Shown piece by piece: positions 54,128 to 54,427 of a stretch of 64,000 bases of DNA. The stretch is taken from the sequence record PV018827, one strand, 5' to 3'. Position 1 is the stretch's first letter. Each line of letters starts with the position of its first letter. This DNA comes from Escherichia phage KM01. The notes under the pieces were generated by a model, which saw nothing but the letters and a program-made list of their open reading frames with translations, did not search any database and was not told the DNA's origin. The translations under genes and the position numbers were made by a program.

Positions 54128-54427
54128 TTACCACTCCTTACCGGTTGTTGTTACAGAGCCTCCACACCACAACGCTGTATCAATCACAACATTATCCGGT
54201 GTAGATTTCTCTTCGTTGATAGAAGGGTTAGCATTAGAGCAGGTTGCTCCGTTCCAGCGCATATCAATTTCACCAGAAGGAACCTTCTTACCTTTATGCC
54301 AGCGAGAAACACAAACACCTTCCACTGCTACTGCACACCATCCATCAGGACGACTCTGTACGCATCCTGTAAGGGCTATACAGACAAGGAAGATACAGAT
54401 TAAGGATATTACACCACCCCAACTCAT
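54128..54427 (-). CDS. Cys-rich lipoprotein
   Basis: Signal MSWGGVISLICIFLVCIALTGC with lipobox LTGC; ~77-aa mature part with 6 Cys. Confidence 0.5.
   Translation of the reverse strand: MSWGGVISLICIFLVCIALTGCVQSRPDGWCAVAVEGVCVSRWHKGKKVPSGEIDMRWNGATCSNANPSINEEKSTPDNVVIDTALWCGGSVTTTGKEW

Follow-up and report, generated by a model that had tools for sequence, protein, structure and literature searches.

The closest described relative of the lipoprotein considered here is Rtp45 of coliphage Rtp (UniProt Q333D9; Pfam family PF24052), which has been determined as chain D of 9RPS, a cryo-electron microscopy complex of LptDE and LptM from S. flexneri with Rtp45 (Dunbar et al., PNAS 2025, PMC12685063). 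In that report, superinfection exclusion by Rtp is assigned to the lipoprotein Rtp45, which attaches to the LptD barrel from the periplasm, at a site flanked by LptE and LptM; its long hairpin reaches up the LptD lumen, and extracellular loop 4 of LptD is shifted by up to 20 angstroms, which blocks binding of the receptor protein. In the phages Rtp, AHS24, TheodorHerzl and Sfin-4 the lipoprotein homologue lies in the receptor-protein locus, in the order J-like tail tip, lipoprotein and DUF6453 protein of about 310 residues (Rtp44-like); this type of locus has been tied to LptD dependence (Maffei et al. 2021). The same logic is followed by Llp of phage T5, an early small outer-membrane lipoprotein that binds the receptor used by T5 itself on its periplasmic side and so prevents receptor-protein binding; Llp, however, is directed at FhuA and works through long-range allostery, whereas Rtp45 displaces a loop sterically (PMC12685063). 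Here, a window of Escherichia phage KM01 (PV018827; the whole stretch of 64,000 nucleotides that was analysed) was studied, which contains at 54128..54427 on the minus strand a gene for a 99-residue lipoprotein precursor of the Rtp45 family, the orthologue of SU10_0104. The gene probably encodes a superinfection-exclusion (receptor-masking) lipoprotein acting on LptD, and the phage's own DUF6453 protein is likely its cognate partner.

The lipoprotein gene and its family

The encoded protein matches the whole of PF24052 ('Phage_lipoprotein'; profile positions 1-80 of 80) with E=9.3e-36 and 122.1 bits (cut-off 27), and it also matches phrog_4281 of the PHROGs database (E=1e-34). The sequence search of the PDB returned one genuine relative, Rtp45 itself (9RPS chain D, E=6.7e-14); the mature regions of the two proteins share 50% identity over 42 residues, with a Smith-Waterman z of 17.6 (2000 shuffles). 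The open reading frame (ORF) is regarded as a genuine gene and not a chance one, because its full length is conserved both among Kuraviruses (more than 80 genomes) and in more distant relatives, and because of its PF24052 score. The preliminary description of this locus had implied an unknown protein. This impression has to be corrected: the lipoprotein itself is not new, since its family is known, has a curated Pfam entry and includes a recently solved structure, and 'putative lipoprotein' is its existing annotation in SU10, SGF2, LAMP and FS2B.

Motif invariance was scored in a family alignment of 58 members. Residues G21, G29, C31, C39, G52 and G60 are invariant; C22, G37, G46, V49, P50, D55, R57, G90, E98 and W99 are nearly invariant; and V92 of the C-terminal motif is invariant or nearly so. 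The LTGC lipobox claimed at the outset was recovered, as LTG/C22 of the target (residues 19-22) is aligned with the lipobox cysteine in 57 of the 58 members, and a Sec/signal peptidase II signal is predicted from the alignment. The stretch RPDGWC31...GVC39 equates to the Cys30-Cys38 pair of Rtp45, a disulfide that as such is established for Rtp45 only (PMC12685063). The hairpin motif in the core of the target reads CVxRWxxGxxVPxGExDxRxxG. Thus the target resembles Rtp45 as a small lipobox lipoprotein of similar predicted fold, in which the disulfide pair, the hairpin and the C-terminal G-x-V..KEW are all retained at the level of sequence.

Structure prediction, which the preliminary description had suggested, pointed to the same relative. 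The AlphaFold2 (AF2) model has a mean predicted local distance difference test score (pLDDT) of 79.5, with values >90 for residues 31-65 and 86-98 and for the strands at 38-44, 47-50 and 52-65. In a Foldseek search of the PDB with this model, the sole significant match was 9RPS_D (E=5e-4, prob 1.0, template modelling (TM) score 0.77). AlphaFold3 mispredicted Rtp45 itself, as stated in PMC12685063, and the fold match of the target is taken as supportive, not as decisive. Designed armadillo-repeat proteins in the PDB also matched residues 63-98 (E down to 2e-10). They were rejected as an artefact, in which weak matches to identical repeats were summed; the E-values of the individual stretches are 50-110, and AF2 gives no helices there, just a low-confidence loop.

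The PF24052 family is small. An exhaustive profile search of 1.84 billion representatives (50% identity) gave 23 matches at E<=0.001. Small proteins (54-109 residues) account for about 18 of them, and the few matches to long proteins are weak and partial. The word-indexed protein search retrieved 9 Kuravirus clusters only, and the distant members were reached through a mixed-alignment query or tblastn. By tblastn, the family was found in 386 phage records, including Kuraviruses, the Drexlerviridae genera Rtpvirus, Rogunavirus, Tunavirus and Webervirus, and Dhillonvirus. A relation to T5 Llp was considered and rejected: Llp of T5 (35430-35660) matches neither PF24052 nor any other Pfam family, and no Llp or Tequintavirus proteins were among the matches listed in the searches with the target.

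The gene comprises 99 codons plus TAA. A Shine-Dalgarno sequence AGGAGGT, read from the sequence, lies at 54432..54438 on the same strand, 4 nt 5' of the ATG (54425-54427). The predicted signal peptide covers residues 1-21 (54365..54427; AF2 helix 3-20) and has an uncharged N-region and two cysteines (C11, C16). The precursor N-terminus, MSWGGVISLICIFLVCIALTG/C, runs through a hydrophobic core into the L-T-G-C lipobox (54362-54373), with Cys22 at +1. Val and Gln occupy +2 and +3, neither of them is Asp, and therefore sorting to the outer membrane is expected. The lipobox is followed by the conserved core (residues 22-62; 54242..54364), delimited by the alignment and the AF2 strands, then by an insert bracketed by Cys63...Cys88 (54164..54241), which the alignment and low pLDDT at 66-85 delimit and which occurs in the podophage subtype only and not in Rtp45, and finally by the family-wide C-terminal motif G-G-S-V-x-T-T-G-K-E-W (54131..54163), defined by the alignment; all of these elements are on the minus strand. 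Six cysteines had been reported for the mature part; recounting gave five (C22, predicted to be lipidated, C31, C39, C63 and C88) in a mature part of 78 residues, and seven in the precursor. The placement of the gene among early genes stands by homology, since the orthologue SU10_0104 is one of CDS69-125, which make up the early class in SU10/phiEco32. No consensus sigma-70 site was found directly upstream of the gene, where site counts are below shuffle expectation, and no promoter or terminator of its own was found in its flanks. It thus seems to belong to a long early operon.

Two subtypes of the family could be distinguished. The Rtp45 type of the siphophages has three cysteines and 73-81 residues, whereas the other subtype has five cysteines and 87-109 residues, and its second cysteine pair brackets an insert of variable sequence with 8-34 residues between the cysteines. 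The five-cysteine members whose context was examined lie in a Kuravirus-like early-gene array in every case. In the AF2 model of the target, the low-confidence insert (66-85) is flanked by strands 52-65 and 86-98. By the register of these strands (63+88 = 65+86), C63 would lie opposite C88, and the model suggests a Cys63-Cys88 disulfide that would staple a hypervariable loop at its base. Compared with Rtp45, the target differs in this variable insert, in the length of the mature protein (78 versus 57 residues) and in the uncharged N-region of its signal peptide. Moreover, its gene belongs to a podovirus and stands in an early operon at a distance of 46 kb from that of the receptor protein; rtp45, in contrast, is directly upstream of rtp44.

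Like the target gene, the PF24052 genes of the Weberviruses (Klebsiella KP36-like) lie among early/replication genes, flanked by those for a resolvase and for Dam, and are unlinked from the DUF6453 gene, which is about 10 kb away; the C-terminus TVTTTGKEW is identical to that of the target. Unlike the target, these siphophage proteins lack the insert and are of the three-cysteine Rtp45 type. For example, Klebsiella phage vB_KpnS-VAC11 encodes at 3995-4222 an Rtp45-type lipoprotein with 73% core identity to Rtp45. LptD could also be the terminal receptor for the capsule-dependent Weberviruses.

The DUF6453 protein and the tail needle

The window also encodes a homologue of the receptor proteins that Rtp45-type lipoproteins accompany. 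When three siphophage DUF6453 proteins were searched against the window by tblastn, a match was found at 8094-8936 (E=8e-13, 8e-11 and 4e-7). The corresponding ORF (7989..9023, plus strand) encodes a 344-residue protein, the orthologue of gp19 of SU10, where it is called 'hypothetical'. It matches the whole profile of PF20051/DUF6453 (E=1.2e-24, 87.6 bits, cut-off 25), shares 25% identity with Rtp44 over 304 residues (z=26), and retrieves 9RPT chain C from the PDB sequences (E=1.7e-9), which is the Oekolampad receptor protein bound to LptDE (PMC12685063). With its AF2 model (pLDDT 85.8, predicted TM score 0.87), only 9RPT_C was significant in the fold search of the PDB (E=6.8e-12, TM 0.78), the next match having E=0.16. 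Residues M1, G4 and I5 (M-x-x-G-I) are invariant in 52 DUF6453 members from siphophages and Kuraviruses; the N-terminus has been reported as the tail-attachment region of such receptor proteins. The protein can thus be classed as a homologue of Rtp44 and RBP-Oekolampad, receptor proteins that bind LptD. PHROGs describes the DUF6453 family as 'membrane protein; moron, auxiliary metabolic gene and host takeover' (phrog_1265), and this label has passed into RefSeq and BASEL, where it is attached to Kuravirus gp19 and to rtp44. The 'membrane protein / moron' label hides the receptor-protein link of gp19.

The gene directly preceding the DUF6453 gene encodes the tail needle (7019..7987), which carries a PF09327 'Phage_Tail_Tip' domain (E=1e-26). 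The J-like tips of three LptD-type siphophages end in the same domain (E about 1e-40), and the needle C-terminus aligns with them to the final residue (...LRIRIGSW versus ...GRVVVGVW). The needle is chimeric in kind, with an N-terminal coiled coil (P22 gp26-like, as described for SU10) and the C-terminal PF09327 module. The DUF6453 protein is proposed to dock on this module. The LptD siphophages have a three-part module of rtp43 (J-like tip), rtp44 (DUF6453) and rtp45 (Maffei 2021; Dunbar 2025), and each part therefore has a homologue in the window, the tip adaptor and the receptor protein being adjacent and the exclusion lipoprotein standing in the early operon. The arrangement differs from that module in that the tip domain is fused to a P22-like podovirus needle and not to a J protein, the lipoprotein is in the early region, and gp19, a putative virion protein, was not seen by mass spectrometry (MS) in SU10.

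The two genes occur together in many of the sampled siphophage and Webervirus records, including FZ10, mtp10, phi1_146036, TheodorHerzl, bov16_1, WF5505, EK99P-1, phiEB49, PsgS01F and ETEP102. A distant Kuravirus-like metagenome contig of 100 kb also has both, at 40% identity for the lipoprotein and 45% for the DUF6453 protein, and its gene order is as in the window: short fibre, nozzle, needle, DUF6453 and then a transglycosylase. The position of gp19 between the needle and ejection-protein genes is thus kept even at 45% identity. Salmonella phage 7-11, which is more distant and has other tail genes, has neither gene by a six-frame profile search (best E=0.31 and 1.9). Within the Kuraviruses, the lipoprotein and gp19 reassort; for example, in YF01 the lipoprotein shows 98% identity versus 61% for gp19. 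Such reassortment would be expected if the lipoprotein acts on the receptor and not on the receptor protein. A PF24052 lipoprotein and a DUF6453 protein, typical of enterobacterial small siphophages, are also found in GenBank records MG065665-MG065670 ('Campylobacter phage A1xx', about 47-50 kb), the Campylobacter host label of which may be wrong.

Proposed mechanism and alternatives

In the proposed mechanism, the lipoprotein would be made with the early genes, exported, lipidated and sorted by the Lol pathway to the outer membrane. By homology to the Rtp45-LptDE complex, it would bind the LptD barrel of the lipopolysaccharide (LPS) translocon LptDE(M) from the periplasmic face, and its disulfide-stapled hairpin would be pushed up the LptD lumen and displace the extracellular loops. 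Receptor proteins of the DUF6453 type would then be unable to bind LptD, so that the infected cell would be shielded from superinfection and from competing LptD-dependent siphophages, and progeny would be spared loss on cell debris. The early timing matches that of T5 llp, which is likewise expressed early. The cognate receptor protein is likely to be gp19, the DUF6453 protein that the phage itself encodes, presumably placed on the needle tip; if it is the partner, LptD would therefore be the terminal receptor of the Kuraviruses. The use of LptD by a podovirus has a precedent in Pseudomonas phage DEV (PMC12892993). A wider proposal, for and against which the case is about evenly balanced, is that a full siphophage LptD module is mounted on a podovirus needle in the Kuraviruses and their relatives of about 100 kb: gp19 on the PF09327 tip would bind LptD as terminal receptor and trigger needle release and genome delivery, and the early lipoprotein would mask the receptor.

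Several observations weigh against an LptD-masking lipoprotein with gp19 as its partner. The lipoprotein gene is not adjacent to the DUF6453 gene, and the variants of the two proteins show no co-variation that could give positive support. In SU10, gp19 was undetected in virions by shotgun MS in 2014, in which the three-copy needle gp18 gave 12 peptides and a contaminating terminase 1, and gel-band MS in 2022 listed it as 'in virion: no'. The SU10 structure paper never mentions gp19; its needle map is at 10-15 angstroms, with C3 symmetry imposed. In the BASEL study, the Kuraviruses were strictly dependent on the O16 O-antigen, and glycan receptors were proposed. This dependence is compatible with a protein terminal receptor, and LptD, which is essential, was outside the BASEL test for these phages. 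The uncharged N-region makes export efficiency appear uncertain, and the 26-residue cysteine-bracketed insert could alter the binding mode.

Alternatively, the lipoprotein could serve to exclude competitors only; it would mask LptD against siphophages, the Kuravirus itself would not be LptD-dependent, and gp19 would have a role outside the virion. The failure of two MS studies to detect gp19 in SU10 virions, the O-antigen dependence, and the independent reassortment of the two unlinked genes would all fit; however, the conserved synteny of gp19 with the needle and ejection proteins, its retained M-x-x-G-I docking signature, the PF09327 C-terminus shared by the needle and the J-like tips that bear these receptor proteins, and the lack of either gene in phage 7-11 speak against it. 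This explanation is considered unlikely, though it is the strongest of the alternatives.

A role in host takeover, in which the LptD lumen would be plugged mainly to halt export of LPS and O-antigen, with exclusion as a secondary effect, appears very improbable. The Rtp45 hairpin does rise up the LptD lumen (PMC12685063), the O-antigen needed for Kuravirus adsorption is exported by LptDE, and the lipoprotein gene is expressed early by homology. On the other hand, co-overexpression of Rtp45 and LptDE is tolerated by growing E. coli, no mention of an effect of Rtp45 on LPS transport was found in the sections of PMC12685063 that were covered, and an infection cycle of about 1 h would leave little time for turnover of surface LPS.

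The uncharged N-region could also be read as a weak or non-functional signal peptide of a poorly exported or decaying gene. Of the 58 aligned members, 11 lack Lys and Arg ahead of the hydrophobic core, and each of these 11 has the N-terminus MSWGGV that is seen in known Kuravirus proteins, whereas all other aligned members begin with MK.. or MTNLIK. The leader MSWGGV..LTGC and all core motifs are nevertheless kept between Kuravirus lineages that are 40% apart elsewhere in the protein, and more than 80 genomes carry an undamaged ORF behind a strong ribosome-binding site; such decay is even less credible than host takeover.

A lysis function, as o-spanin or another lysis lipoprotein, can practically be dismissed: the protein is o-spanin-like in being a small predicted outer-membrane lipoprotein with several cysteines, but its gene is in an early operon, the Rz-like i-spanin gene is about 31 kb away and has a lipoprotein neighbour of its own, the solved family member binds LptD (PMC12685063), and the siphophage homologues are in receptor-protein loci and not in lysis cassettes. 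Receptor masking, exclusion of other phages or a spanin role had all been suggested before for the product of 54128..54427; the first two are supported by the homology to Rtp45, which also names LptD as the target, and the spanin role was rejected, as the gene is neither adjacent to nor embedded in an i-spanin gene and an i-spanin with a lipoprotein neighbour is found elsewhere. The Rz-like i-spanin is encoded at 23072-23440 (minus strand; phrog_1152, E=6e-35), and the lipoprotein with an LSAC lipobox at 22376-22642 (minus strand; phrog_2425, 'unknown function') is an o-spanin candidate because it lies just downstream. The region 22376-23440 (minus strand) is thus a candidate two-component spanin. 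An HNH endonuclease ORF (22590-23048) lies between the two and overlaps the 5' end of the lipoprotein gene. The lipoproteins at 22376-22642 and 54128..54427 had been described as unrelated, with separate envelope functions. This view is borne out: the family profile occurs once in the window, the two proteins belong to different PHROGs (phrog_2425 versus phrog_4281), and Rtp45-type masking at one locus would stand beside a putative o-spanin at the other.

Genome layout and biological meaning

The region 53000-56000 of the window has 99% identity to Escherichia phage YW01 and 90-95% identity to many phiEco32/SU10-like podophages (genus Kuravirus, subfamily Gordonclarkvirinae). By mapping to SU10, the structural genes comprise the distal long tail fibre gp13 (103-2301), the endolysin gp15 (2641-3132), the short tail fibre gp16 (3145-3948), the nozzle gp17 (3958-6975), the needle, orthologous to gp18 (7019-7987, plus strand), the gp19 orthologue and the ejection proteins gp20-24 (9033-18026). 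The rest of the window consists of middle and early genes on the minus strand.

Other early features surround the lipoprotein gene. In the tRNA-like stretch 54440-54573 no tRNA was found by ARAGORN or Rfam, the only one being tRNA-Arg(TCT) at 54574-54649 (minus strand). The 3' end of an HNH homing-endonuclease ORF (54640-55062, minus strand) overlaps this tRNA gene by 10 nt; the same layout is annotated in Bas91, and some close relatives have been reported without the tRNA. Just downstream of the lipoprotein gene, the adjacent ORFs 53419-53640 and 53650-53940 (both on the minus strand) are clear paralogues, with the consensus …LSTLxxGSxFxHDxxFWIKxD…GYITCxNxxNGxVDGxRPxxxVxPQxxAKxxGLVY, and look like the two copies of a tandemly duplicated early gene. 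Paired CxxC motifs (e.g. MSCYGG..CPDCGC..CKTCGDQPC) occur in the small early ORFs 53236-53409, 55097-55306 and 55732-55908 (all on the minus strand), which suggests zinc-ribbon-like proteins.

The isolation host on record for YW01 (PV018828) and its sibling KM01 is E. coli K-12 JCM20135 (PMC12424339), in contrast to the BASEL paper, according to which Gordonclarkvirinae able to infect K-12 with its O-antigen unrestored had yet to be obtained. If JCM20135 is rough, as is usual for K-12 lines, the isolation of both phages on it hints at a receptor other than the O-antigen.

In an incompletely covered literature, no paper linking Kuravirus, phiEco32 or SU10 with LptD, Rtp45 or DUF6453 was found, nor was any paper on PF24052. 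What is new is a distinct structural subtype, in another virus morphotype and uncoupled from the receptor-protein gene. The Rtp45 family thereby gains a second subtype with a predicted disulfide-stapled hypervariable loop, the gene of which is unlinked from the receptor-protein gene. For the Kuraviruses, where recent work has assumed glycans, LptD becomes a candidate for the terminal receptor. As an essential and conserved protein that is hard to mutate, LptD would matter for the prediction of resistance and for the choice of cocktail partners. The Gordonclarkvirinae (Kuravirus and relatives) are often isolated against pathogenic E. coli and are candidates for therapy. Kuravirus-infected cells are predicted to become refractory to LptD-dependent siphophages. 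If the wider proposal of a siphophage LptD module on a podovirus needle is true, an entire phage subfamily in therapeutic use would have its terminal receptor named, and a module of receptor protein, exclusion factor and tip adaptor would be shown to move between siphovirus and podovirus tails.

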